IMG/VR virus record: IMGVR_UViG_2875713109_000001
Direction: 5' to 3' (one strand)
DNA length: 64,000 bases
From: a virus
Taxonomy: Duplodnaviria; Heunggongvirae; Uroviricota; Caudoviricetes
Position 1 is the stretch's first letter. The number at the start of each line of letters is the position of its first letter. The notes under the pieces are model-generated. The model was not told where the DNA came from and did no database searches. It saw only the letters and a list, made by a program, of their open reading frames with translations. This document shows, piece by piece, positions 3,880 through 50,987 of the stretch. The position numbers and the translations under genes were made by a program.

Positions 3880-4066
3880 GTATTTTTAAGTCGCGAATGC
3901 TATCTTTTCGCATCATATTGACCTTTTAATCGTTCAGGCTTATAGTTTCGCCGTCGTAGCAAATTCTGCGACCAGGTTTGACAGCCTGAATGATTGTGCG
4001 GACAACCGCAGATTTCCGATATTGCGGTATTTTTGTGTCCGTTAAACCGCGTTACGCCCAAATTAT

Positions 4067-4143
4067 GGTGGGGCGTGATGGGGAGGCTTCGGCCTGCTGG
4101 TTTCACAATCGCCAGTCTGTCAACCCTGTCACGTCCTGCCACC
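4067..4143 (+). ncRNA. c4: c4-like antisense regulatory RNA (about 77 nt)
   Basis: Structured segment closed by ggtgg/ccacc with UUCG hairpin; internal cacaatc and caacc are complementary to gattgtg and ggttg found both upstream (3972-3999) and at the icd RBS (4146-4183), the a/b target layout expected for c4. Confidence 0.45.
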
Positions 4144-4193
4144 TGTTTGACAGCGGGTAGCAGGTTGTTAAACCTGATTGTGAGGCCGTAACT

Positions 4194-7454: not shown

Positions 7455-8159
7455 ATGTTGAACCGAAGAACATTTAATGTATTCTGCGATGAATCCTGTC
7501 ACCTACTAAATGATCATAATAAAGTCATGGTATTGGGTGCGCTTTGGTGCCCTGGCACTATCACAAAAAAAATTGCTAGAGACATCAAGGAATTAAAATT
7601 AAAACACAATCTAAAACCTGATTTCGAAATCAAGTGGACTAAAGTATCTGCGTCCAAGGTTGAATTTTACTTAGATGTCGTAGATTACTTCTTCAGCAAC
7701 CCAGCATTGCGCTTTAGAGGTGTTGTTGTTCCTGATAAAGAGCAACTGGACCATGCTCGATTCCATCAAGATCATAATACTTTCTATTATAAGATGTTTT
7801 TTTATGTCTTAAAAAACATAATAGAAAGTAACAACACATACAATATCTACCTAGATATAAAAGATACTTTAGGTATTGAAAAAATTGAGAAATTAAGAGG
7901 AGTTCTTCACAATGATCGCTATGATTACAATCATGAGTCGATAAACAGAATTCAACATATACGATCTCATGAAGTGCAACAATTGCAGCTAACGGATCTT
8001 TTCATTGGTGCGTTAGGCTACGTTCATCGAGGAATGAATAGCAACGCGGGAAAAATCCAAGTCATAAACAGGATAAAATCACATACAAACAGGGATTTAC
8101 TAAAAAGCACTCTTCCAACAGAAAGTAAATTTAATATTTTCGTGTGGGAGGCTCGCTGA
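7455..8159 (+). CDS. DUF3800-like protein (234 aa), AT-rich cargo gene
   Basis: ORF with GTGGAG SD; N-terminal FNVFCDESCH and C-terminal QLQLTDLFIGAL resemble the conserved ends of DUF3800 proteins (from memory, not searched); local GC far below flanks. Confidence 0.5.
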   Translation: MLNRRTFNVFCDESCHLLNDHNKVMVLGALWCPGTITKKIARDIKELKLKHNLKPDFEIKWTKVSASKVEFYLDVVDYFFSNPALRFRGVVVPDKEQLDHARFHQDHNTFYYKMFFYVLKNIIESNNTYNIYLDIKDTLGIEKIEKLRGVLHNDRYDYNHESINRIQHIRSHEVQQLQLTDLFIGALGYVHRGMNSNAGKIQVINRIKSHTNRDLLKSTLPTESKFNIFVWEAR

Positions 8160-8623
8160 TGCTTCAAATGCCAGATTTATTGTACTTCAATGGAAGTTGG
8201 CAAGAGTATATAGACGATGTATATTATGTTGTCAGAGAAGACATTTTAATCTCTAATATAACGTTTAAGGGTCTCCCTGTTCGGTTACGTTATTCACCGG
8301 AATATGATGGGAAAGAGTTCGGATTTTGGCATTTAGTATCAGAGGGAAAAATAGAAGAAGAACGAATACCTGATCTTGAACGGTGTAAGCGGATCCGCTG
8401 GATCGCGCATATGATAAGGAATTATAACCATTCCGATATATCATGTTGGTCTGAAAGACGAGGACCAACTGAAGAATGGGTAATCTGGAACGAGTGTGAA
8501 AACTACGTTGTTGTGCTATCCGCACGTAGAGACTATTGGCTTCTTAAAACAGCCTATGTTGTAACCTATAACAGTAAAATCAGAACACTCAAACAAAGCA
8601 GAAAAAGAGCGCTTGGGACATAA
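8159..8623 (+). CDS. hypothetical protein (154 aa) translationally coupled to DUF3800-like gene
   Basis: ATG overlaps upstream stop (TGATG) with GGGAGG SD; YD...(13)...LVSEGK spacing is compatible with a PD-(D/E)xK nuclease core (speculative). Confidence 0.45.
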   Translation: MLQMPDLLYFNGSWQEYIDDVYYVVREDILISNITFKGLPVRLRYSPEYDGKEFGFWHLVSEGKIEEERIPDLERCKRIRWIAHMIRNYNHSDISCWSERRGPTEEWVIWNECENYVVVLSARRDYWLLKTAYVVTYNSKIRTLKQSRKRALGT

Positions 8624-10308: not shown

Positions 10309-11124
10309 TTAGCCAAGGCGCTTACGGCGCAGTTTCATTGACTTTTTGCGGGCAAGTTTTGCCGCGCCGGTCTGGGCTTTTCGACGCGCTTTTTTCAGCG
10401 CCGATTTTTGAGCCGCAGTCAGACGTTTTTTACGCAGGCGTTTACGGATGAGTTTGATCTCACCGTTACGAACAACCTTCTTAAATGCTTCAGTCAGCAT
10501 TTCATCAGAAGTGCCAGCAACAACAAACGCCGCTTCCAGTTCGTCGCGGTCGTCGCTATCTAAACCAGCGATAGAGGCACCAACATCAGCAGCAGCGTCG
10601 TCGTCTTCATCGTCAGCCAGTGCTTCGATCAGGTCATCATCTACACCGCATGCTGCGAGGAAGTCAGCAACATTTGCCCATGCTTCGTTATAGGCATCGT
10701 CCTGTTCTTCTGTAACTTCGGAGTCGTCGTCATCAGAGATACCAGCGATAGCCTGAACGAAACCATCAAGGGAGTCGAAAGTCAGATCACCGCTATCAGC
10801 CCAGGCGAAAACGGCGTCGGCCGCATCACTCAACGCATTCTGCATAGCACTTCGATTTGCAGCTTCCAGAATCATCTGGTGCGCCTGTTCGACGGTCCAT
10901 TCTTTACCGTCTTTCCCTTCCAGGATTTGCTCAGGAGCCGGGGCAGATGGAACGTTATCGTTAGTCTGTGCCGCCGGTTCCGGATTATTATTAATAACCG
11001 GATCTGTTGGCGGTTCGGCGCTTGCTCGGGCAGACTCCATCAGCTGCACAGGATCAGAGTTCAAAGCGAAACGGGACAGTCCATTCCCCAAAAATGCCCC
11101 GGATTGAAAAAAGTTTTTGCTCAT
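10309..11124 (-). CDS. acidic protein with highly basic C-terminal tail (271 aa)
   Basis: D/E-rich body, C-terminal KRLRKKRLTAAQK...RRKRLG; ATG start with SD. Confidence 0.45.
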   Translation of the reverse strand: MSKNFFQSGAFLGNGLSRFALNSDPVQLMESARASAEPPTDPVINNNPEPAAQTNDNVPSAPAPEQILEGKDGKEWTVEQAHQMILEAANRSAMQNALSDAADAVFAWADSGDLTFDSLDGFVQAIAGISDDDDSEVTEEQDDAYNEAWANVADFLAACGVDDDLIEALADDEDDDAAADVGASIAGLDSDDRDELEAAFVVAGTSDEMLTEAFKKVVRNGEIKLIRKRLRKKRLTAAQKSALKKARRKAQTGAAKLARKKSMKLRRKRLG

Positions 11125-11133
11125 TGTATTCCC

Positions 11134-12723
11134 TTACTTAATAAGCAGCGGTACGCCCTGGATACGACGGGCTACGCCAGTCGGGCAGCAGGCCCAGACT
11201 ACTTCCCATTTATCGAATTCCGCCTGCGTAACTTTCAGCACATACGGTTCTGTACCGTCAGCATCAGGATCACGAGGAGCCACCAGAGCGCCGGAGGCGA
11301 CAAAGCGATCCAAAAGTTTGGTCATCCCTTTAGTCAGACCAGCGGCAGTAATACCGTCAGGGCTATGCTTCATCTGGCGGGCTAACTGGACAAAGAAACG
11401 GCTGATTGCATTCATCAGGGATGGGACGTGCTGGAAGTGCAGATAGTTATCCTGCGTGCAGCAAGTTAAAGCATCGTCGATGATCATCTGGCCAGAGGTG
11501 CCAACAGATACTTTATTGAGGCGGCCCTTAACCATTGCTTCTTCGTCCGGGGTATCTTCCGGATACAGCGGTTGAATTGACGCACGAGCAATGACGGCAC
11601 GTTCTTCACCAGCCGGTGAGTAATGCCAACCGCCGACATCAGAGTTTTTCTTGACGCCACGAGCTTTCGCCGCATACGCCGCGCCAGACAGACCGAAGAC
11701 CACACGGGATTGGGTCCATTTGTCTTTGCAGGAGAACGGGAAGTGATAGACAGAACAGCTTACATAATCGGTACCAAGTAAACCGGTGCCCTCAACAGCT
11801 GTTAGTGCTTCTGCGTACCTTAATGTCGGTTTGACATCAAAGAAGCCATCAATCAGGCGATCTGCACAGATTTTACCTAATGCGGTGATAGCCGCATTGT
11901 CATAGCAGCCCAGGCCAAGAACAGCGGTGTACATGTACGGCGCATTGTTCAGCACCTTAACCGCACGCAGGTACGCAGCGGTTGAGATTTTCGACTGATC
12001 ACCGTTGGTACCACCAGTGAACGCCAACGATTTTTTGTTTGTTACTTTCGCTGTAGAAATCAGATCTTCATTAACAACCGCGCGCAGATATTTAGAACGA
12101 GCTTCCAGAGCCGTAGGCAGATAACACAAGCGGCCCATGTCATCTTTCGCTTCTTCCGCCAAAGACACAGTGTGTGTCTCCAGGGTCGTTACCACACCAA
12201 GCGAAGTCGTCTGGGTCAGTTTTAAGATGAAGCGTTCATTACTCGCGCTGTCCGCTGTTGCCGTTTCGATGGTTAACTCACGGGTAGGTGAAATACACGG
12301 ATCACCATCATCAACGTAGATAGCAAAGGCTTCGCCGCTATCAAGTTCAATTTCAGAACCGTATGGCAACGCACTGTAAGCCGGTTCGCCTGATTCATCG
12401 AACATAATAATCGGGAACTTCGCATCATCCGGAACAGCACGGACAACATAACCAGACGTTTGCTGAATAGCTTCGTACACATGGCGAATTGGTTCGAACT
12501 GTGAGCCGGTAGACGGCTTCAGCGGTTCGCCGAGAACATCTTCGTAATTGGATTCAGTAACCGCAAGAACAGTAAACGGCTTGCCACGCGCAAATACGCC
12601 AATACCAGCCCATAAGCTGCTATTTAATGCAACACCGGTAGATAACGTCGCATCGGCATTGATCGGGCTAACCGCGACGCCGGATGCATTACCTAATGAC
12701 TGTTGAATTGAATATTGAGACAT
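11134..12723 (-). CDS. large virion structural protein (529 aa), candidate tail sheath
   Basis: Long ORF with AGGGAA SD directly downstream of the capsid-like gene; assignment by size and position only. Confidence 0.35.
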   Translation of the reverse strand: MSQYSIQQSLGNASGVAVSPINADATLSTGVALNSSLWAGIGVFARGKPFTVLAVTESNYEDVLGEPLKPSTGSQFEPIRHVYEAIQQTSGYVVRAVPDDAKFPIIMFDESGEPAYSALPYGSEIELDSGEAFAIYVDDGDPCISPTRELTIETATADSASNERFILKLTQTTSLGVVTTLETHTVSLAEEAKDDMGRLCYLPTALEARSKYLRAVVNEDLISTAKVTNKKSLAFTGGTNGDQSKISTAAYLRAVKVLNNAPYMYTAVLGLGCYDNAAITALGKICADRLIDGFFDVKPTLRYAEALTAVEGTGLLGTDYVSCSVYHFPFSCKDKWTQSRVVFGLSGAAYAAKARGVKKNSDVGGWHYSPAGEERAVIARASIQPLYPEDTPDEEAMVKGRLNKVSVGTSGQMIIDDALTCCTQDNYLHFQHVPSLMNAISRFFVQLARQMKHSPDGITAAGLTKGMTKLLDRFVASGALVAPRDPDADGTEPYVLKVTQAEFDKWEVVWACCPTGVARRIQGVPLLIK

Positions 12724-12783
12724 AACTTTCCCTGTTATGCGCCCCGCACGGGGGCGCTATGTTAAACGGAGAACTTCCCGTGA

Positions 12784-14490
12784 TTACTCAGAGTCACCGG
12801 CATCAATCATGTTACCGGTCAGGAAGTTAATTCCGCCATTTTTGGCCATAGTCAGAGTTACACGCGTGAAGTAGTCAGCGCCGTTACGTGGGTGCATATC
12901 GTTGATAGCCGAACCCCACAGAGTGGTTCGGTTAACTAGTGCCGGGGTGGTCGGATGCTGGAATGGGACAGCCGGGACTGCATCACCAGTTACGAAGCCC
13001 GCTTTGCCCGGATTTTCATCACGGACGTAGCACAGCACATCCATTGGGCTGAACTGGATACCGTCGGCGGTCAGGTTCGTACAAATACCTTCTGGTACTT
13101 CGAACACTTTGACGTTGCCGAACAGATTGCCAATGTAGTGGACGTATGGGGTCTGGATGTAATCTTCTGCTGGCTGGAAGAAATCCTTCGGCAATTGTTT
13201 GAAGAAAGATGCCGCATCAGCACCGGCATACATCCCCATCGCACCAGAAGATTTAATACGCTCAATAATACCGCGATATACCGTCTGGAATTTGCCTCGA
13301 ATGATGGTTGCCCACACATCAAAGGACTGGTTAGCTGGCAGTGCAATATCAAAGGAGTCGGTCGCAAGAGTTCGCCAAATCATGATACGAAGACGAAGCA
13401 TATCTTGCTCATGGGACAGGTATTCCTTCAGGGTGCGGAACTGTAGGGAGCCAAGATCCAGACCAAATTCACGCTGTGCTTCATACGCCGCCTGTACCGT
13501 GTGCTCAGCCGCGATGACGAACTGGTTTGGGAACAGGGTGTAACTCTTCATTTCGTGGTTGATAAGTGGGATCAGCTCAGGAGCTGCTTCTATATTGATC
13601 TCCGCCTCAATGGCGATCTCTGTACCTTTATCTGGCGCTTTGGAGAACGACAGGACAATCTGACCAACGTTGTAATTCAAAGAGCAAGTAACAGTGATTT
13701 GTTCGCCTGCTTTGTTATTGAATGTGTGAAGCAGAGTGCCGGAGCCGTTATCAACAACAGACTTAATACGGTTAACGTAGATGTTTGTGCGACCTTTGCG
13801 AATCGGGACATTCTGACCTTCGACATCTTCCATCTTGAAGGTTGCAGTTTTGCTGGTGCCGTCGGAGCTTGCAACCAGCACATAGCGGCGGCGCAACTGG
13901 CTGTACACGCCAACGGATTGCATGTCCAGAACATCACCAATAGCATAAGAGCCAAAAGAAGAACCCGCTACGTTAAAGATTTCATAGATTTCGGACTTGT
14001 CACGCGTAACCGGAATGAATGTACACGCATCAGCGGTAGCTGCCCCCAACTGAACAGGCAGGATCATCGCCAGGAATAAAGGCAGACGCATAACCCCGTC
14101 AGAAACACTCATCATCTCTGCCGCGACTGATTCCAGCATCGCTTTATTGGTGGCATCCATGCTATTGCGGGTGGACTCAATCAGGCAGTTTTCCAGCGTC
14201 TGGTGGCAGGAGGCCAGAATTTCCGGACGTGGCATAGATTTATGTGTTGCGGCGTAGTCAGCCAGTGCACTTGCCCACGCTGTAGCGATTTGAGCGGTGG
14301 CATTATCAGAGATACCCGCAAAAATTGGGTCTTTACGTGCAGCTTCAAGGATAGATGCGGCACGCGCGGCATCATCTTTAATGAATTGGTTATCAGTACC
14401 GAACTGCGCAGTGCTTGCCCAGCCAAGCACAGCTTTAGAGCGTTTTGCGATATCTGCAATACGATTCTGGTATTCGCGTAAGTTACTCAA
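12784..14490 (-). CDS. large virion structural protein (about 568 aa), candidate major head protein
   Basis: Long ORF adjacent to parS/parB as gene 23 is in P1; probable TTG start at 14490 after AGGAAG SD (track start 14511 is also TTG). Confidence 0.35.
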   Translation of the reverse strand: MSNLREYQNRIADIAKRSKAVLGWASTAQFGTDNQFIKDDAARAASILEAARKDPIFAGISDNATAQIATAWASALADYAATHKSMPRPEILASCHQTLENCLIESTRNSMDATNKAMLESVAAEMMSVSDGVMRLPLFLAMILPVQLGAATADACTFIPVTRDKSEIYEIFNVAGSSFGSYAIGDVLDMQSVGVYSQLRRRYVLVASSDGTSKTATFKMEDVEGQNVPIRKGRTNIYVNRIKSVVDNGSGTLLHTFNNKAGEQITVTCSLNYNVGQIVLSFSKAPDKGTEIAIEAEINIEAAPELIPLINHEMKSYTLFPNQFVIAAEHTVQAAYEAQREFGLDLGSLQFRTLKEYLSHEQDMLRLRIMIWRTLATDSFDIALPANQSFDVWATIIRGKFQTVYRGIIERIKSSGAMGMYAGADAASFFKQLPKDFFQPAEDYIQTPYVHYIGNLFGNVKVFEVPEGICTNLTADGIQFSPMDVLCYVRDENPGKAGFVTGDAVPAVPFQHPTTPALVNRTTLWGSAINDMHPRNGADYFTRVTLTMAKNGGINFLTGNMIDAGDSE

Positions 14491-14534
14491 TTTACTCTTC
14501 CTTAAACACAAGGCACTTGTGTGAATCCCTTTTC

Positions 14535-21965: not shown

Positions 21966-24226
21966 AAGAGCTGTGCTATGGATCTGTTTGCAGTGGAATT
22001 GAAGCCGCGAGTATTGCCTGGGAACCGTTGGGTATGCGTCCGGCGTGGTTTGCTGAAATCGAGCCTTTTCCATCTGCCGTTCTTGCGCACCGCTGGCCCC
22101 ATGTCGCCAACCTTGGCGACATGACAAAACTTGCCAAAAAAGTCCTGGCTGGGGAAATCGAATCCCCTGATGTGCTCGTCGGGGGAACACCTTGTCAGGC
22201 ATTCAGTATCGCTGGATTACGTGGTGGGCTTGATGATGAGCGTGGCGCGCTAACTTTAAAGTATGTGGAGCTTGCAAATGCAATTGACGACAAACGGGCT
22301 GAGTCATTTCTCAAACCAGCCGTTATCGTCTGGGAAAATGTCCCAGGAGTCTTGTCATCGGCAGATAACGCCTTCGGATGTTTCCTTGCCGGATTGGCTG
22401 GAGAAGATGCGCCATTTGAACCAGGTGATCGACCTGAATCAGGAAAAAGTAACGCGTTCTGGCGGTGGGATGGCAAAACCGGTTGCCATGCTCCAAAGTG
22501 GCCGCAGTGTGGTTGTATTTATGGACCGCAGCGAAAGGTGGCCTGGAGAATCCTTGATGCCCAATACTTCGGAGTGGCACAACGACGCCGACGCGTGTTT
22601 GTTGTCGCAAGTGCTCGAACAGACCTCGATCCCGCAACGGTACTTTTTGAGTTCGAAGGCGTGCGCCGGGATATTGCGCCGAGCCGAAAAAAGAAGGAAA
22701 TCGCTTCCGCCATTATTGCAAATGGCGCTGCAATCAGTGGCGAAAGCCTAAATCCATGCCTACATGCTGACATGCCACCCGGTATGAAATCGACGAAAGC
22801 CGTAAACGCTTTCAGGATGGCAGCATTTGGGGAATATATTGACGATGAAACCGCATCGACAGTAAAGGCAAGAGATTTTAAAGATGCCACTGACCTTGCC
22901 GTTTTTAGCAGCACAGGAGCAGCTTTTTGGTCAGAAGGGCATGGTACATTGCGGGCACGTGAGCAAGAAAGCCATGAGCATCTTGTTACATTGGCTTTTC
23001 CTGAGCGTATGAGCGGTACACAACATGCTGCAACTAAGAATACTTCACCATCTCTAATGGCTAAAAATCCAACAGCTGTTTGCTATGAAGTAAGAAACGC
23101 AGAAGTAGCTGTCCGCCGTCTTACCCCTGTCGAATGTGAAAGGCTGCAAGGTTTTCCTGATGGGCATACGTTGATCCCGACGGAAAAGCGTAAAAAAGTT
23201 AGTTCAGATGAACTGGCATATCTTCGCAATCACTATCCAGATTTAAGCGAAGAAGAGGCCGTGATGCTTGCAGCTGACGGACCGCGTTACAAAGCGATCG
23301 GCAATAGTATGGCAATACCAGTAATGCGCTGGATTGGCGATCGGATTACTAAGGCCGTATGTCGGCAGAAAGAAGGAAGTGAAACAAAAGAGCGAAAAGT
23401 TAAACCAGCGGCAGAATTCGAACGGTCCATATTCAAATGGGCTGGTGGAAAATTTGGTGTTCTGGAACAAATCTTTCGCTATTTGCCAGAAGGGAAGCGC
23501 CTGATTGAACCTTTCGTTGGTGGCGGAGCTGTCTTCATGAATGCCGGATACCAGGAAAATCTGCTAAATGATGTGAATGCTGACCTGATTAACTTTTACA
23601 AGACTCTGCAACGCGAGGCGCATTCACTTATCACTCTGGCACATCGTTTTTTCCTGGACTACAACACCCAGGAGGGATACTTGGCAGTACGGAATGCGTT
23701 TAACAAACAAGTCTATGATGATTTACATCGCGCAGCGGCGTTTTTGTTCCTGAACCGACATTGTTTTAACGGATTGACGCGTTACAACCAGGCCGGTGAG
23801 TTCAATGTCGGTTATGGGAAGTATAAAACTCCGTATTTCCCATTACAGGAGATGGAAGCCTTCCTCGGTGCGGAAGGGCGGTCTGAGTTTGTATGCGGTG
23901 ATTTTGCAGCGGTGATTGAAGCTGCCGGAGAAGGAGATGTCATCTTTTGCGATCCGCCGTATGAACCGCTCCCCAATACAGAGGGGTTCACGAACTATTC
24001 CGGTCATGACTTTAAGTTTGAAGAGCAAAAACGCCTGGTGTCTCTGTTGACGGATGCTCATCGTCGAGGTGCAAAGGTTCTCATTACTAACAGTGGCGCG
24101 CCAAACATCAGAGAGCTTTATCATGACAGTGGCTTCAGAGTGGAACCTCTTTTTGCCAGACGTTCTGTGTCTTGTAAGGGGGACACTCGAGGTGTAGCTC
24201 ATGACGTTTTGGGTATATTGCTCTAA
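21962..24226 (+). CDS. dmt: bifunctional DNA methyltransferase Dmt (N-terminal C5-cytosine MTase-like, C-terminal Dam-like N6-adenine MTase)
   Basis: 754 aa; [12 protein letters not shown] and ENVPG (C5 motifs IV and VI); C-terminal [13 protein letters not shown]..., DPPY (IFCDPPYEP). Confidence 0.85.
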
Positions 24227-24233
24227 TAAATTA
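24217..24233 (+). promoter_or_regulatory. C1 operator-like site at start of tRNA-ban operon leader
   Basis: attgctctaataaatta overlapping dmt stop; TAATAT -10-like hexamer 10 bp downstream. Confidence 0.6.
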
Positions 24234-24407
24234 ATTAGTGTAATATCGCCTCAATGAATCGTGATTTATAGAGCGATTTAGCTGTTAGCCGCGACAGGCG
24301 CGGCGGTAAGCATGGCTGGGCCTAGTCCTCCCAGACAAACCACCGAGTTGCCAGGTTGACCATGCGCCTAAGTGGCAACGCCGAAGTGCGTTACGAGCTT
24401 CCAGTTT

Positions 24408-24433
24408 GCCCATCTTCGGGTGGGCGTTTTTTT
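24408..24433 (+). terminator. intrinsic terminator or attenuator in operon leader
   Basis: gcccatc-ttcg-ggtgggc (UUCG tetraloop) followed by GTTTTTTT. Confidence 0.5.
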
Positions 24434-24899
24434 CAGGGTTTTCGTCATGGTTAGCGACTTTGCGGCGGTTTAGAAACTGACCATTAAAGTAAATGCAAAC
24501 GATGATCTGATGATGGTAGCGGCCTAAGAAACCAGATGCCACGGGGTATGAGTCGTCCCCCGTCAAAAAAATCGACCGCAGAGTGTCCCCGTCTGTGTAT
24601 TAGGGAACGGGGAGGCACAACAGGTAAGGGCGCTGGTGTGATTAACCAGATGAACGAGAAGGGGCCATCTGTTGGTCAGCGTCCTTTCCTGTTGCGTTTT
24701 CTTTTCAGCGTAACAGCGGTGCTTAACAGCACTTTGGGTACAGTTCCACGAATTTACGGGTATATCCCGTCATGCTGAAGGCGCTAATCACGCTGGAAGC
24801 CAGGGTTGTGCATCCCCTGTTACCGAATTGCAGCCAGGGCGCGGTGCGCCGAAAAGCATACGGAGGTGGAAGCCCTCGCCGGAGACGTACCCGGCAAGT

Positions 24900-24975
24900 G
24901 ATGGTGTAGCTCAGCGGTTAGAGCGGTTGACTGTTAATCAACGGGTCGATGGTTCAAATCCATCCACCATCGCCA
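24900..24975 (+). tRNA. tRNA-Asn (anticodon GUU)
   Basis: Cloverleaf folded by hand: acceptor gatggtg/caccatc, anticodon stem gttga/tcaac with loop ctGTTaa, T-arm gatgg-ttcaaat-ccatc, 3' CCA encoded. Confidence 0.85.
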
Positions 24976-24977
24976 AT

Positions 24978-25053
24978 GCCGGTTTAGCTCAGTTGGTAGA
25001 GCGCCTGCCTTGTAAGCAGGATGTCAGCGGTTCGAGTCCGTTAATCGGCACCA
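24978..25053 (+). tRNA. tRNA-Thr (anticodon UGU)
   Basis: Acceptor gccggtt/aatcggc, D-arm gctcagttggtagagc, anticodon stem cctgc/gcagg loop ctTGTaa, T-loop ttcgagt, CCA encoded. Confidence 0.85.
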
Positions 25054-25785
25054 GCACAACAGGTAAGGGTATTTTGCGACGCCGGAGATCGCCGAGCTTG
25101 GCAGAGGGTTCGAATCCCTACGAAGTACCCTTACCGTTGTGATGAAGTGCAGCTCTTTGAAGCAACCAGAAGATAAGCATCTGGCTTCACAACATAAACC
25201 GCAGGAACGACCAATAAACGGTAGTCCGTATGGAGAACACCCCGTTGAGGAAGAGGCCTGGCCGGAACCGTAACCGGCACTACAACGTTGAGAACACTGG
25301 CGTAACGGGGTCATATCCCAATCTACGAATAAATGTTGCGTTGCAGCGTGACAACCAGTGTTCTCAACATTGTGGTGAATGCACAGGCTGATGTGCCGCA
25401 ACTACAGTAGTGCGCGCTTTGCGGGGCTTGCTACAACCCTGTGTCGGAGTTCAGCACCGACCATCACAGTTTGATTCTCTGGCATGAGCATAACGCTGAA
25501 ATAAGTCCAGTCTGGTGCGGCCCGATCACCCGCCGTTAGCTCCACGAAACGGAGCACGTAACAGGTAAGAGCATTCTCCTGTAACGGGTTCATATCCCAA
25601 TCTACAGGTCCACCAAGAATGCTCTTTCCGTTGCGGTGAATGCGGCTAAGCGCACGCGGGGAAATGGTTATATCAGTCCATTCATTTCTCCTTGTTTCCC
25701 CGTCCACGGTGGATAACCAGCCAAAGGACACCGGGAGGCACCCGGCACCGCAGCTTTTTTATTCGTTAAATAATGGAGTGAGAGG

Positions 25786-26022
25786 ATGCAGAACAATCCG
25801 AACAAATGTCGAACGCTATGGGTGCGGTTATATATTTATGCCGTCCTCTGTTTGATTGTGTCACTGGTTCTGTATGTTTGGCTTTTGCCAAATATGATCT
25901 CATCTAACAGCACAATACTTGTATTGTTGGGAGTCCTTCTCGCGCTCATTTACCCGGCTTTCGCAGTAGTCTTTTTTCGTGAAAAAACCAGGAAATTAAT
26001 TAATGAAAAAAACGTTGATTAG
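25786..26022 (+). CDS. small membrane protein (78 aa)
   Basis: Two hydrophobic segments; overlaps start of downstream lipoprotein gene. Confidence 0.45.
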   Translation: MQNNPNKCRTLWVRLYIYAVLCLIVSLVLYVWLLPNMISSNSTILVLLGVLLALIYPAFAVVFFREKTRKLINEKNVD

Positions 26023-26830
26023 TGCAGCGATTATTTTGGGTTCTTTATGTCTGACCGGATGCGATCGGGTAGAGCCAGGTAACGTAGGGATCAAAGTAAA
26101 TAAGCTGGGGGATGATAAAGGTATCGGTGAAGTAGTTGGCGTTGGTCGCTACTGGACAGGCTTGAATACTGAAGTTTATATCTTCCCGACCTTTAAGCAA
26201 ATGAAGACATACGATGAGCCGTTCAGCTTCCAGATGAGCGACGGAACAACCATTGGTTACCACATCGGCGTAGCCTACAAGGTTGATCCAGCAAAAGTCA
26301 CAACGGTATTTCAGACCTATCGCAAAGGTGTAGATGATATTACTGATACCGATCTACGCCAGAAGGTTGCAGATGCTCTGAACCGGTTAGCCAGCAAAAT
26401 GACCACCGACAAATTTATCGACGGTGGCAAATCTGAATTGCTTGATGCAGCCCTTAAAGACATTCAGGAAGAAATGACGCCAATCGGCATTCAGGTGATG
26501 AGCCTCTCTTATGTAGGTAAGCCAGAATACCCGCCAACAGTTATTGACAGTATTAACGCCAAAGTCACGGCAAACCAAAAAACCCTGCAACGCGAGCAAG
26601 AGGTCAAACAACGTGAAGCAGAGGCCAACATGCTGCGCGCGGAAGCTGCCGGACAGGCTGATGCTATTCGCACAAAAGCCCAGGCCGAAGCTGATGCCAT
26701 TCGTTTACGTGGTGAAGCTCTGCGCCAGAACCCCGGTGTTATGGAGTTGGAAGCGATCAACAAATGGAACGGTACATTACCGCAGTATATGACCAGTAAT
26801 ACCGCTGTTCCGTTTGTTCCGGTGAAATAA
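26003..26830 (+). CDS. lipoprotein with SPFH/band-7-like domain and coiled-coil C-terminus
   Basis: Signal plus lipobox LTGC; central domain then EAEANMLRAEAAGQADAIRTKAQAEADAIR helical repeats typical of SPFH family. Confidence 0.5.
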   Translation: MKKTLISAAIILGSLCLTGCDRVEPGNVGIKVNKLGDDKGIGEVVGVGRYWTGLNTEVYIFPTFKQMKTYDEPFSFQMSDGTTIGYHIGVAYKVDPAKVTTVFQTYRKGVDDITDTDLRQKVADALNRLASKMTTDKFIDGGKSELLDAALKDIQEEMTPIGIQVMSLSYVGKPEYPPTVIDSINAKVTANQKTLQREQEVKQREAEANMLRAEAAGQADAIRTKAQAEADAIRLRGEALRQNPGVMELEAINKWNGTLPQYMTSNTAVPFVPVK

Positions 26831-26857
26831 AAGCGTAAGCAAAATTGGCAGTAATCC

Positions 26858-26933
26858 GGCCCTTTAGCTCAGTGGTTAGAGCTGGCGACTCATAATCGCA
26901 CGGTCACCGGTTCAAGTCCGGTAGGGGCCACCA
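26858..26933 (+). tRNA. tRNA with CAU anticodon, Ile2 (ileX)-type
   Basis: Near-identical over most positions to recalled E. coli tRNA-Ile2; acceptor ggccctt/aggggcc, anticodon loop ctCATaa, CCA encoded. Confidence 0.8.
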
Positions 26934-27219
26934 TATTTGGTTGTAACACGGCGTCTGGCACATGCGTCGTTAGCGGTCTGGTGACGTTAAAAGGGGGGAA
27001 CCTTGCCCCTAGCTCAGGCAACGAACCAGGTAGCCGGAATGTGCAAGCCACCGTTTGTTGTTTCTCGGGTAAAGGGATTCACCATCCTGGCGATTCGGTG
27101 TGACAGCCGGGAAGAGTCCGGCGCATTAATCCTGATTTTCTGGTGATGACTCATATCGTTAGGAGTGATTTGAGTATGCCGATTATATCTGACATTCAGC
27201 ACGCCTGGGTGGAGTGCTA

Positions 27220-28584
27220 ATGTCTGCATCCCCTCTTGAATCCATGCCAAATTCCCTTAGTGCAGAACAAGCTGTACTTGGTGGCTTAATGCTTGATAAC
27301 TGCCGCTGGGATGAAGTTGCAGATCGTATAGTTGCTGATGATTTTTATACCAGTGCTCATCGTGAAATTTTCAGTGAGATGGAGAGGTTATTAAGTCATG
27401 GCAAACCGATTGATTTGATAACACTTGCTGAAGCACTTGAACAGAACGGTAAATTAGAACGCGCCGGTGGTTTTGCGTACCTTGCGGAGATGTCAAAGAA
27501 CACGCCCAGCGCGGCAAATATTTGTGCTTATGCGGATATCGTTCGTGAACGCGCGGTTGTTCGTGAAATGATTTCCGTCGCAAATGAAATAGCCGAAGCT
27601 GGATATGCGCAGGATGGCAGGGGCAGCAATGAATTGCTAGATATGGCCGAGCGCCGCGTTTTTGAAATAGCTGAAAAACGACAAAAGAGCGGTAGTGGTC
27701 CAAAAGATATCGCCAGCATTCTCGATGCAACGGTATCTCGCATAGAAGAGTTGTTTCAGCGACCACATGATGGTGTAACGGGGCTTGATACGGGATTTAC
27801 CGATCTCAATAAGAAGACGGCAGGGCTTCAGCCGTCCGATCTCATCATTGTCGCCGCCCGCCCATCTATGGGGAAGACCACGTTTGCGATGAATCTCGTC
27901 GAAAATGCCGCAGTTCGTAACGATAAGCCCGTATTGGTTTTTAGCCTTGAGATGCCGAGCCACCAGCTGATGATGCGCTCACTGGCTTCTCTTGCACGCG
28001 TTGATCAGACTCGTATTCGGACAGGGCAACTTAACGACGAGGATTGGGCGCGGGTTTCTGGCGCAATGGGTATTCTGTTGGACAAGCAGAATATTTTTAT
28101 TGATGACTCAAGCGCCCTGACACCTACAGAGCTTCGTTCCCGCGCTCGTCGTGTTTATAAAGAAAATGGTGGTTTGAGCATGATTATGATCGACTACCTG
28201 CAACTTATGCGCGTCCCCGAGCTGCAAGATAACCGAACGCTGGAAATTGCCGAGATTTCTCGCTCACTGAAGGCGTTGGCGAAGGAATTACAAGTACCGG
28301 TGGTGGCATTGTCACAACTTAATCGATCGCTTGAACAGCGTGCGGACAAACGACCGGTAAATTCAGATTTACGTGAATCAGGAGCAATTGAGCAGGACGC
28401 AGACCTGATCATGTTTCTGTATCGCGACGAAGTTTATCACCCGGATAGCGAAATGAAGGGCATTGCCGAGGTAATTATCGGAAAGCAACGAAATGGCCCA
28501 ATTGGCACGGTGAGATTGGCTTTTAACGGCCAATACTCACGGTTTGATAACTATGCTGGTGCTGACTGGCAAGAGGATTATTAA
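27220..28584 (+). CDS. ban: DnaB-family replicative helicase Ban
   Basis: DnaB N-terminal domain and RecA-like domain with Walker A PSMGKTTF; GGTGGAG SD before ATG 27220 (track start 27214 is GTG). Confidence 0.85.
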   Translation: MSASPLESMPNSLSAEQAVLGGLMLDNCRWDEVADRIVADDFYTSAHREIFSEMERLLSHGKPIDLITLAEALEQNGKLERAGGFAYLAEMSKNTPSAANICAYADIVRERAVVREMISVANEIAEAGYAQDGRGSNELLDMAERRVFEIAEKRQKSGSGPKDIASILDATVSRIEELFQRPHDGVTGLDTGFTDLNKKTAGLQPSDLIIVAARPSMGKTTFAMNLVENAAVRNDKPVLVFSLEMPSHQLMMRSLASLARVDQTRIRTGQLNDEDWARVSGAMGILLDKQNIFIDDSSALTPTELRSRARRVYKENGGLSMIMIDYLQLMRVPELQDNRTLEIAEISRSLKALAKELQVPVVALSQLNRSLEQRADKRPVNSDLRESGAIEQDADLIMFLYRDEVYHPDSEMKGIAEVIIGKQRNGPIGTVRLAFNGQYSRFDNYAGADWQEDY

Positions 28585-29628: not shown

Positions 29629-32775
<3,147 letters not shown>

Positions 32776-50648: not shown

Positions 50649-50851
50649 TGTTTTTTGACTGCCGATGTTACATTGAACCTGACCTCTTGCGCCTTGAGGC
50701 ATTTTCGGTTTATGCTTATCAGGCACCTCATTAAAACGGGTGCCGGGATTGGAACCCCGGATAATGCAAAAGGCGACACAGACGCCAAAAGCGTCTTTTT
50801 TTGTGTCATGCCATCGCACAGCCATACGTAGCACATAGCTCCGAGATCAAT

Positions 50852-50926
50852 GGTAGTGCTGGCTGGGCTGCCGAAAGGCAGGCCGGTTCCCTTTTGCGCC
50901 GGTAGTTCCAACCCAGTCAGTGCTAC
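50852..50926 (+). ncRNA. second c4-like structured RNA (tentative)
   Basis: About 75 nt closed by ggtag/ctacc with GAAA-loop hairpin ctgcc-gaaa-ggcag; same position relative to the icd-like gene as 4067-4143. Confidence 0.3.
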
Positions 50927-50987
50927 CGCCATTGAGATTGGAACCTCACGCGGTAGCTCCTTAAGTTAGCAAAAGGAGGCTGCCATT

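Follow-up and report, generated by a model that had tools for sequence, protein, structure and literature searches.

The locus examined here raises a simple question: what does a temperate phage gain from carrying three transfer RNA (tRNA) genes? The genes, which specify tRNA-Asn, tRNA-Thr and a tRNA with the anticodon CAU, lie in the IMG/VR record IMGVR_UViG_2875713109_000001, from which a stretch of 64,000 nucleotides (referred to below as the window) was analysed; the phage as a whole has about 97 kb. A first-pass annotation of the same DNA proposed that these tRNAs supply codons for AT-rich cargo genes, and that they may also buffer host defences that target tRNAs. We find that they are the known tRNAs of phage P1. 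The explanation that we prefer, to which we give an even chance of being right, is that tRNA-Ile2 and tRNA-Thr modestly add to the decoding of AUA and ACA codons once C1 repression is lifted, as an accessory gain and not as a requirement.

The tRNA genes of the P1 ban operon

Exactly three tRNA genes, all on the plus strand, are found by ARAGORN in the window. That of tRNA-Asn (anticodon GUU) is at 24900–24975, has the anticodon loop CUGUUAA and keeps the identity element of this tRNA, the discriminator G73; that of tRNA-Thr (UGU), at 24978–25053, has the loop CUUGUAA and keeps the identity pairs G1–C72 and C2–G71. The third gene, at 26858–26933, has the anticodon CAU and is labelled 'Met'(cat) by ARAGORN. 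The scores of the Asn, Thr and CAU genes against Rfam RF00005 are 74.5, 72.9 and 64.7 bits, to be compared with a gathering score of 29, with E-values between 1e-12 and 1e-16; this signal is far beyond chance. All three have the features of canonical elongator tRNAs, with the anticodon placed at position 34 by ARAGORN and a CCA end encoded in each gene. The coordinates and anticodons of the first-pass annotation are exact according to both ARAGORN and Rfam.

These genes are not new. The 2.8 kb around them are 99.9% identical to the P1-like records MH422554, MH445380 and MH445381, and match the reference P1 genome (NC_005856) over 61% of their length. The parts of 24500–27300 that are common with NC_005856, including the CAU tRNA, are about 99.4% identical, and the 281-nt segment that holds the Asn and Thr genes (24880–25160) is 99.3% identical in NC_005856 and 99.6% identical in other P1-like records. 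The annotation of NC_005856 contains trnA (tRNA-Asn), trnT (tRNA-Thr) and trnI, under the locus tags P1_gt070, P1_gt071 and P1_gt117, and trnI bears the label 'tRNA-ile2 (CAT)', with 89 pct identity to ileX. The synteny dmt – Oban – trnA – trnT – ... – trnI – ban is that of reference P1, with the same order, the same strand and the same position between dmt and ban, behind Oban; ban, the gene downstream in the tRNA operon (27214–28584, plus strand), is an open reading frame (ORF) annotated as a DnaB-like helicase. The two genomes differ in the interval between trnT and trnI, where the window has a gene for an SPFH protein and not tciA/B/C. The window is that of a P1-like phage-plasmid, and its tRNAs are the known trnA, trnT and trnI, which belong to the ban operon under C1 repression. 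Both the tRNAs and the rationale of rare codons are already found in the annotation of reference P1.

Regarding the CAU tRNA, the first-pass annotation read it as an Ile2-type tRNA, and this assignment is well supported. Among E. coli tRNAs, the closest is ileX (68 of 76 positions identical), compared with 55 of 77 for metT/metU and 45 of 77 for the initiator metZ. The acceptor stem (GGCCC.../...GGGCC) has C4:G69 and C5:G68, as in ileX, while metT/metU have U4:A69 and A5:U68; positions 4:69 and 5:68 are the major identity elements of E. coli TilS (PMC11947777). Identical copies of this tRNA from P1-like plasmids of E. coli are labelled tRNA-Ile in RefSeq. One deviation is a G27–A43 mismatch, where ileX has a G–U pair. 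The lysidinylation of C34 by the host TilS, and the reading of AUA that follows from it, are predicted from this resemblance.

The control point of the ban operon is the bivalent C1 operator Oban (24217–24246, plus strand), made of ATTGCTCTAATAAATTA and a partner, which overlaps P1ban/P2ban and maps by offset to the annotated Obana/Obanb and to the –10 element of P1ban in NC_005856. The operator sequence ATTGCTCTAATAAATTA is at 24217–24233, where it overlaps the stop codon of dmt, and the –10 element TAATAT is at 24241–24246. According to the record of P7, the tRNA genes are under the control of Op(ban). Placed behind Oban, the tRNAs are expected to be off in the lysogen and turned on after infection or induction. 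A strict sigma-70 scan of 24100–27300 returned no promoter (3.3 were expected by chance), and it also missed the annotated Pban, which makes it uninformative about promoters close to the tRNAs. The papers found on RNA-seq of P1 infection say nothing about the tRNAs.

Between Pban and the tRNAs lies what the P1 annotation calls a 'dicF-like region' (24341–24433, plus strand; L001 2843–2944 in the reference), which is near-invariant in four P1-like phages; at E<1, an Rfam search of this segment did not return DicF. Just downstream, the leader at around 24433–24530 resembles the leader of the Shigella phage Sf11 upstream of tRNA-Ser and tRNA-Arg (L014, around 2290–2360).

Codon usage and the case for codon supply

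The same ORF rule was applied to the window, E. coli, lambda and Mu: the longest ORFs of at least 100 amino acids were taken greedily, with an overlap of at most 60 nt. The host background consists of two 50-kb stretches of E. coli MG1655 (100 kb; 29,324 codons). These ORF calls are heuristic; in one E. coli region, greedy calls gave 4.3 ATA and 5.5 ACA per 1000 codons, compared with 3.5 and 4.7 for the annotated coding sequences. Our own ORF calls were used and not those of MH422554, a record that lacks collinearity with the window: a position-by-position comparison gives 25,165 mismatches.

According to a criterion reportedly due to Bailly-Bechet et al., codon compensation by phage tRNAs implies that their cognate codons are commoner in the phage than in the host. 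This is the case for two of the three tRNAs. Per 1000 codons, the window has 12.3 AUA, 15.7 ACA, 23.0 AAU and 21.5 AAC, and E. coli has 3.5, 5.4, 16.0 and 22.8, respectively. The odds ratio (OR) of the window against E. coli is 3.5 for AUA (p 1e-27) and 2.95 for ACA (p 2e-28). Among the 61 codons, AUA ranks third and ACA fourth in enrichment, and ACA is first in absolute excess; the chance that two of three random tRNA species would be among the four that read the four most enriched codons is about 0.02. The enrichment of cognate codons over the host had been chosen beforehand as the test of the codon-supply proposal, and on AUA and ACA, where it is present, the proposal survives.

On this basis, a sequence of events can be proposed. 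Infection or induction would end the repression by C1 and allow transcription of the region, a timing suggested by the position of the operator. Host RNases would then free the tRNAs, the long hairpins that flank them (described below) being plausible processing or stabilising signals. TilS of the host would convert C34 of the CAU tRNA into lysidine, isoleucyl-tRNA synthetase would charge the product and AUA would be read. The additional tRNA-Ile2 and tRNA-Thr(UGU) may then modestly raise the capacity to decode AUA and ACA, from which the phage would benefit.

Several observations weigh against this proposal. The first is that AAU is only weakly enriched (OR 1.45) and AAC is not (OR 0.94), so tRNA-Asn is not accounted for by codon bias. 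The second is that the most enriched codons are AGG (5.4x) and AGA (3.5x), and there is no phage tRNA for either of them. The third comes from phages that have no tRNA genes. Lambda has 10.6 AUA, 13.5 ACA, 20.1 AAU and 20.5 AAC per 1000 codons, and does not differ significantly from the window in AUA (p 0.17) or ACA (p 0.12). Mu, which has no tRNA genes either, has 6.2 AUA, 13.0 ACA, 21.3 AAU and 21.6 AAC: its excess of AUA is lower than that of the window, its excess of ACA is nearly equal, and in ACA and AAU the window genes at or above a GC content of 0.42 are no different from Mu. Since the tRNA-less phages share the enrichment (of ACA and AAU, and of AUA in the case of lambda), codon enrichment does not discriminate between phages with and without tRNAs. 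The fourth is that the tube, sheath and major head genes (10309–14511, minus strand) contain 0, 0 and 1 AUA in 1,372 codons; it is as if the late genes with the highest expression were still held to the host tRNA pool in their use of AUA, even with a phage tRNA-Ile2 present. The fifth is a strong terminator-like hairpin, found by a terminator scan at 24404–24426 and followed by seven T, which closes the dicF-like region and so stands between Pban and the tRNAs. The last is experimental: in a genome-wide CRISPR interference (CRISPRi) screen of P1, the efficiency of plating (EOP) was 0.92 ± 0.40 for trnT and 1.4 ± 0.79 for trnI, both genes being non-essential for plaques (PMC10695390). In the same screen plp, upl, tciA-C and ban also had an EOP of about 1 and were non-essential (PMC10695390). 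It is important to note that plaque EOP is a coarse measure, so these results count against a strong requirement and leave room for a modest effect on fitness.

In contrast to the tube, sheath and major head genes, the baseplate gene 5 (29629–30261) contains 7 AUA in 209 codons.

The excess of AUA and ACA in the window is thus real, genome-wide and generic for temperate coliphages. What stands of the codon-supply proposal is the roughly threefold excess of AUA and ACA over the host; the codons of tRNA-Asn, the AGA and AGG codons, the tRNA-less phages and the knock-down of the tRNAs do not fit with it.

A narrower version of this proposal, that of the first-pass annotation, is that the tRNAs serve mainly for the expression of AT-rich cargo, namely res and mod, which form a type III restriction–modification system, and the cassette at 7455–8623. 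These genes are indeed AT-rich, with GC contents of 0.348 for res, 0.359 for mod and 0.350 and 0.400 for the two ORFs of the cassette. Together the four genes have 21.9 AUA, 26.3 ACA and 41.3 AAU per 1000 codons, about twice the window average, with all cognate codon families raised; relative to the host, the increase is about 6-fold for AUA and about 5-fold for ACA. The statement that AUA is rare in E. coli and raised in these genes is therefore correct (3.5 against 21.9 per 1000). However, the four genes make up 11.4% of the codons and hold about 20% of the AUA, ACA and AAU codons, and about 80% of AUA and ACA codons are elsewhere. The frequency of AUA does not correlate with the GC content of the gene (rho –0.13, p 0.32), the correlations are weak for ACA (–0.31) and AAU (–0.33), and the genes whose GC content is at least 0.42 still have 11.0 AUA and 14.1 ACA per 1000. 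Moreover, the tRNAs are also found in P1-like genomes that have different cargo; res and mod are dispensable, and the knock-down of the tRNAs has no plating phenotype. Last, restriction–modification has to work in the lysogen, where tRNAs placed behind the C1 operator would be repressed, which makes them a poor fit for serving res and mod there. The link with the AT-rich cargo is weak, given the independence of AUA from gene GC and the small share of codons in these genes, and we consider it very unlikely that such cargo is what the tRNAs are mainly for.

Regarding the cassette itself, PADLOC matches it with PDC-M04, a candidate defence system of two genes: the first ORF (7455–8159, plus strand) is the component PDC-M04A (DUF3800, 317 bits) and the second ORF (8144–8623, plus strand) is PDC-M04B (173 bits).

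Codon supply has also been proposed for the ileZ-argN-argO genes, which are found between Q and the lysis genes in Shiga toxin (Stx) phages such as 933W and in other lambdoid prophages; they include an Ile2-type tRNA for AUA, and the suggested role is the supply of rare codons. Up to 14 ileX-like copies are present in E. coli genomes. P1 differs from these prophages in that it has Asn and Thr tRNAs in place of the Arg pair, despite AGA and AGG being the codons most enriched in P1, and in that its tRNAs are controlled by C1 and Oban and not by Q antitermination.

Distribution of the tRNAs: selection, defence or passenger

The pair of Asn and Thr genes is present on 710 plasmids of PLSDB, mostly non-mobilizable and, for the records listed, of about 93–112 kb, and 456 E. 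coli records contain copies of the CAU tRNA that are at least 99% identical. The set of three is common to P1, RCS47 and SJ46, and is extended in P7 and D6 by a type-II tRNA-Ser(UGA), whose codon UCA is 2.3-fold enriched in the window. In both phages (L010 2501–2587 in P7, L011 2515–2601 in D6) the anticodon of this tRNA is at position 33 and a hairpin module comes next; on the tRNA-Sec model, the two genes score 46.6 and 43.1 bits, just below the gathering score of 47.

A different situation is seen in Ro157c2YLVW (L003 2400–2646), which has an Asn-Tyr-Thr cassette between flanks that are near-identical to those of the window, while its tRNA-Asn and tRNA-Thr are identical to ours at 67 and 63 of 76 positions. 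The cassette shows compensatory changes in the stems, and a U32 in the loop of tRNA-Thr. Divergence between near-identical flanks, together with compensatory changes, suggests that the tRNA block was swapped as a unit in a manner that preserved function. N4-like, T4-like and other coliphages also have an Asn-Thr pair, in the same order and 82–91% identical. The retention of the tRNAs, the swap of the cassette and the recurrence of the pair argue for selection on these tRNAs, whatever the benefit.

This benefit could lie in defence. Phage tRNAs could act as spare parts that let translation continue during lytic growth when the host cleaves its own tRNAs, and protection of phages by their tRNAs has indeed been shown against PARIS, retron Eco7 and PrrC-type systems (PMC11555353). 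tRNA-Asn, which codon usage leaves unexplained, belongs to the target class of colicin E5 (PMC10264068), and its body is far from that of the host: 48 of 76 positions are identical to E. coli asnT and the acceptor stem is entirely different, compared with 62 of 76 between tRNA-Thr and thrU. A bacterial Schlafen cuts tRNA-Ile(CAU), among others, although it also cleaves phage tRNAs (PMC13056530). The tRNA-Tyr that is added in Ro157c2YLVW is of the target class of retron Eco7, and the slot next to the tRNAs holds exchangeable cargo (tciABC or SPFH). On the other hand, the anticodon loops are all identical to those of the host (those of tRNA-Thr and tRNA-Asn to thrU and asnT, and the CUCAUAA of tRNA-Ile2 to ileX), and the signature of 'escape mutation' proposed by van den Berg et al. 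2023, a loop that departs from the host isoacceptor where anticodon nucleases recognise or cut it, is therefore absent. Among the studies of tRNases that we found, none reports a nuclease against Asn, Thr(UGU) and Ile2 together. The anti-defence tRNAs of T5 type resemble those of P1 in being phage copies of host tRNA species that are expressed early in infection; the difference is that the demonstrated rescue from PARIS, retron Eco7 or PrrC involves tRNA-Lys and tRNA-Tyr, whereas the Asn and Thr tRNAs of P1 keep host-identical loops. The suggestion of the first-pass annotation that the tRNAs buffer tRNA-targeting defences thus finds no support in their sequences, and anti-defence is an unlikely explanation in our view; the diverged body of tRNA-Asn keeps the idea alive, at low probability.

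The tRNAs could also be largely neutral passengers, or accessories for host range: parts of a mobile RNA island of tRNAs, hairpin modules and an sRNA, passed between temperate phages of enterobacteria, that bring little or no benefit in E. coli K-12 and matter only in other hosts of this phage, whose host range is broad, or during slow growth. The CRISPRi results on trnT and trnI, with an EOP close to 1 (PMC10695390), speak for this explanation. Lambda and Mu, with the same codon bias, do without any tRNA gene, and the set of tRNAs varies among close relatives, which may have an additional Tyr, an additional Ser or a whole cassette replaced. The same modules are found in unrelated phages, and the Asn-Thr pair is found on plasmids of Escherichia, Salmonella, Klebsiella, Shigella and Citrobacter. 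However, all three tRNAs have perfect cloverleaves with their identity elements; the replaced cassette of Ro157c2YLVW has compensatory stem changes and no decay; retention in hundreds of plasmids is hard to square with strict neutrality; and plaque EOP, as said, is a coarse measure of fitness. We rather doubt this explanation, and a modest contribution to AUA and ACA decoding is still the explanation that we favour.

The tRNA clusters of virulent T4-, N4- and T5-like coliphages often combine Asn-Thr(UGU) with Ile(CAU), Tyr and Ser. These phages have sets of 8 to 26 tRNAs and degrade or outrun their host; P1 is temperate and has three.

Hairpin RNAs and the interval between trnT and trnI

The tRNAs of the window are surrounded by four strong hairpins on the plus strand, referred to as modules A to D, with predicted folding energies of –35 to –50 kcal/mol and z-scores of –4.8 to –5.5. 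Module D (24615–24697), with the base CACAACAGGTAAGGG.../...CCTTTCCTGTTGCG, is 200 nt upstream of tRNA-Asn (–45.3 kcal/mol, z = –5.4). Module A (25054–25141) directly follows the CCA of tRNA-Thr, and consists of an irregular stem of about 20 bp with the T-arm-like sequence AGGGTTCGAATCCCT in its apex (–42.8 kcal/mol, z = –4.8). Module B (25278–25377), which corresponds to repeats I1 and D3, has arms of 23 nt and the loop motif GTAACGGGGTCATATCCCAATCTAC (–49.6 kcal/mol, z = –5.5). Module C (25558–25640; z = –5.0) is built on the constant base CGTAACAGGTAAGAGCATT.../...AATGCTCTTTCCGTTGCG and shares its 25-nt apical motif with module B. Modules A, C and D share the irregular base CACAAC-A-GG-U-AAGRG.../...CUCUU-U-CC-GUUGYG and have unrelated apexes, while the arms of module B are different; in modules A and C, the base is followed by GUGAAU or a close variant. 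In Ro157c2YLVW, the apex of module A is replaced and its base is kept, and RCS47 carries an additional module.

These hairpins are not restricted to P1. The motif of the 3' arm, GCTCTTWYCGTTGYGGTGAAT, is present in at least 120 IMG/VR contigs, and module C belongs to this family. Among the matches listed, 39 mutually dissimilar apical inserts are found between near-invariant arms, and 38 of the 121 units have a tRNA gene within 1 kb, without exception on the strand of the unit. Many unrelated temperate phages, such as ST64B, Sasha and Sf11, have pieces of the region in gaps between genes where nothing is annotated; in Sf11, the piece is upstream of tRNA-Ser/Arg, behind a homologous leader. In one lambdoid prophage, the interval from Q to the holin gene contains a unit of the hairpin family seen beside the P1 tRNAs, a further likeness between P1 and the lambdoid prophages.

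The arms of 28 units were aligned; the pattern used to pick these units already constrains a large part of the 3' arm. In this alignment, pairing within the proposed 18-bp stem amounts to 96.8% and seven pairs change on both sides; none of 500 shuffles reaches the observed values. Many of the changes are one-sided and give G–U pairs, which indicates pairing in RNA and on this strand. The stem of the family reads CACAAC-A-GG-U-AAGAGCAUUG / CAGUGCUCUU-U-CC-GUUGUG and is followed by GUGAAU, and some of the apexes mimic the T-arm of a tRNA. Most of the hairpin units match no family in an Rfam scan, and a full-text literature search for the hairpin motif returned unrelated rice primers only. The family, with an invariant irregular stem of about 18 bp and a hypervariable apex of 35–75 nt, is apparently undescribed, although it may overlap the published PasA/C/D small RNAs (sRNAs).

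Three other identities were considered for the hairpins, of which the first two are rejected. A resemblance to Y RNA (YrlA) is limited to a single hit of 25.6 bits (gathering score 69), which merely spans the two tRNAs. As attC sites of integrons, their ends GCACAAC ... GTTGTGA do not fit RYYYAAC/GTTRRRY by inspection, and there is no integrase. A role as ribozymes of the hepatitis delta virus (HDV) or hammerhead type, which would form the 3' ends of the tRNAs, is not supported: Rfam gives no ribozyme match at E<1, and ribozymes of this kind do not typically have long perfect stems.

An STnc100/PasD-like sRNA often comes next after the hairpins. In the window, an sRNA-like segment (GTGAATGCGGCTAAGCGCACGCGG ... 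GGGAGGCACCCGG) with a T-run at its end occupies 25632–25765 on the plus strand. Its match with the STnc100 family (RF02076) over 25632–25752 scores 37.8 bits, below the gathering score of 47 (E 5.6e-6), and similar matches are found in P7 (43 bits), D6 (39.6) and ST64B (35.1). The alignment of the window segment covers positions 31–147 of the 206 of the model, of which the 5' part is unmatched, and all scores lie between 33 and 43 bits and hence under the threshold. STnc100 and PasD belong to one family of sRNAs, which prophages carry in association with Q (bioRxiv 10.64898/2026.05.13.724894).

Elsewhere in the window, two matches with C4 antisense RNA are seen on the plus strand, at 50723–50933 (76.7 bits) and 3940–4146 (68.4 bits). 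An isrK match (62.4 bits) lies immediately upstream of one of them, and the other has an a1/b1 target element; the second C4/isrK unit is downstream of pacB.

From trnT to the small ORF that follows there are 730 nt, where the annotation of reference P1 places two genes on the minus strand, plp and upl (L001 3524–4093); the corresponding ORFs of the window are at 25024–25401 and 25402–25731, also on the minus strand. Neither is likely to be a gene. Close relatives, near-identical otherwise, differ in this interval by indels of 1 nt, 13 nt, about 160 nt and about 190 nt, and indels whose length is no multiple of 3 break or resize the ORFs. The 'Upl' ORF has 109 amino acids here, as opposed to an annotated coding sequence of 192 nt (about 63 amino acids) in reference P1. 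The 'Plp' ORF is antisense to the 3' end of tRNA-Thr, and structured RNA fills the plus strand. The plp and upl genes of reference P1 are probably not protein-coding.

The remainder of the interval is occupied by protein-coding cargo on the plus strand. A small ORF from the ORF list (25786–26022) codes for a hydrophobic protein of 78 amino acids, for which no match was found in Pfam or PADLOC, and overlaps the start of the next gene, which codes for an SPFH/Band-7 lipoprotein (26003–26830; Pfam PF01145, 107.6 bits). The latter is 86–87% identical to a gene present in P88 and in many Stx2 phages, and a PADLOC scan gave no match for it. As in RCS47 and Ro157c2YLVW, these two genes are in the place of tciA-tciB-tciC of reference P1.

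Taken together, the hairpins, the sRNA-like segment and the tRNAs may be read as components of one mobile and modular RNA island that is present in P1-like phage-plasmids and, in the late leader (from Q to the holin gene) or in other slots between genes, in many temperate phages of enterobacteria, which includes the constant-stem hairpin family and in which plp and upl are mis-annotated. We put this reading forward tentatively, as a possibility that is more open to doubt than our explanation of the tRNAs. If it were true, the hairpins could be scaffolds for a processing of RNase III or RNase P type, which would act on tRNAs and sRNAs; more speculatively, they could be decoys that bind proteins of tRNA metabolism or of defence. 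The tRNA cluster of T4 also encodes small stable RNAs of unassigned function, which are a possible analogue of the hairpin RNAs of P1.

The tRNAs themselves, as first described in this DNA, add little to what is known of P1: the genes and their rationale were already known, and trnT and trnI are dispensable for plating. What the codon analysis does provide is a calibrated negative result: the enrichment of codons relative to the host is generic in temperate coliphages and is by itself no evidence that phage tRNAs supply codons. The by-product of the analysis could matter more, namely a widespread hairpin RNA with a constant stem and a variable apex, which is found beside phage tRNAs and prophage sRNAs. 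Its modules overlap two probable non-genes of P1; the recognition of this family could correct the annotation of P1, and it could clarify how the non-coding RNA islands of phages are processed and exchanged.

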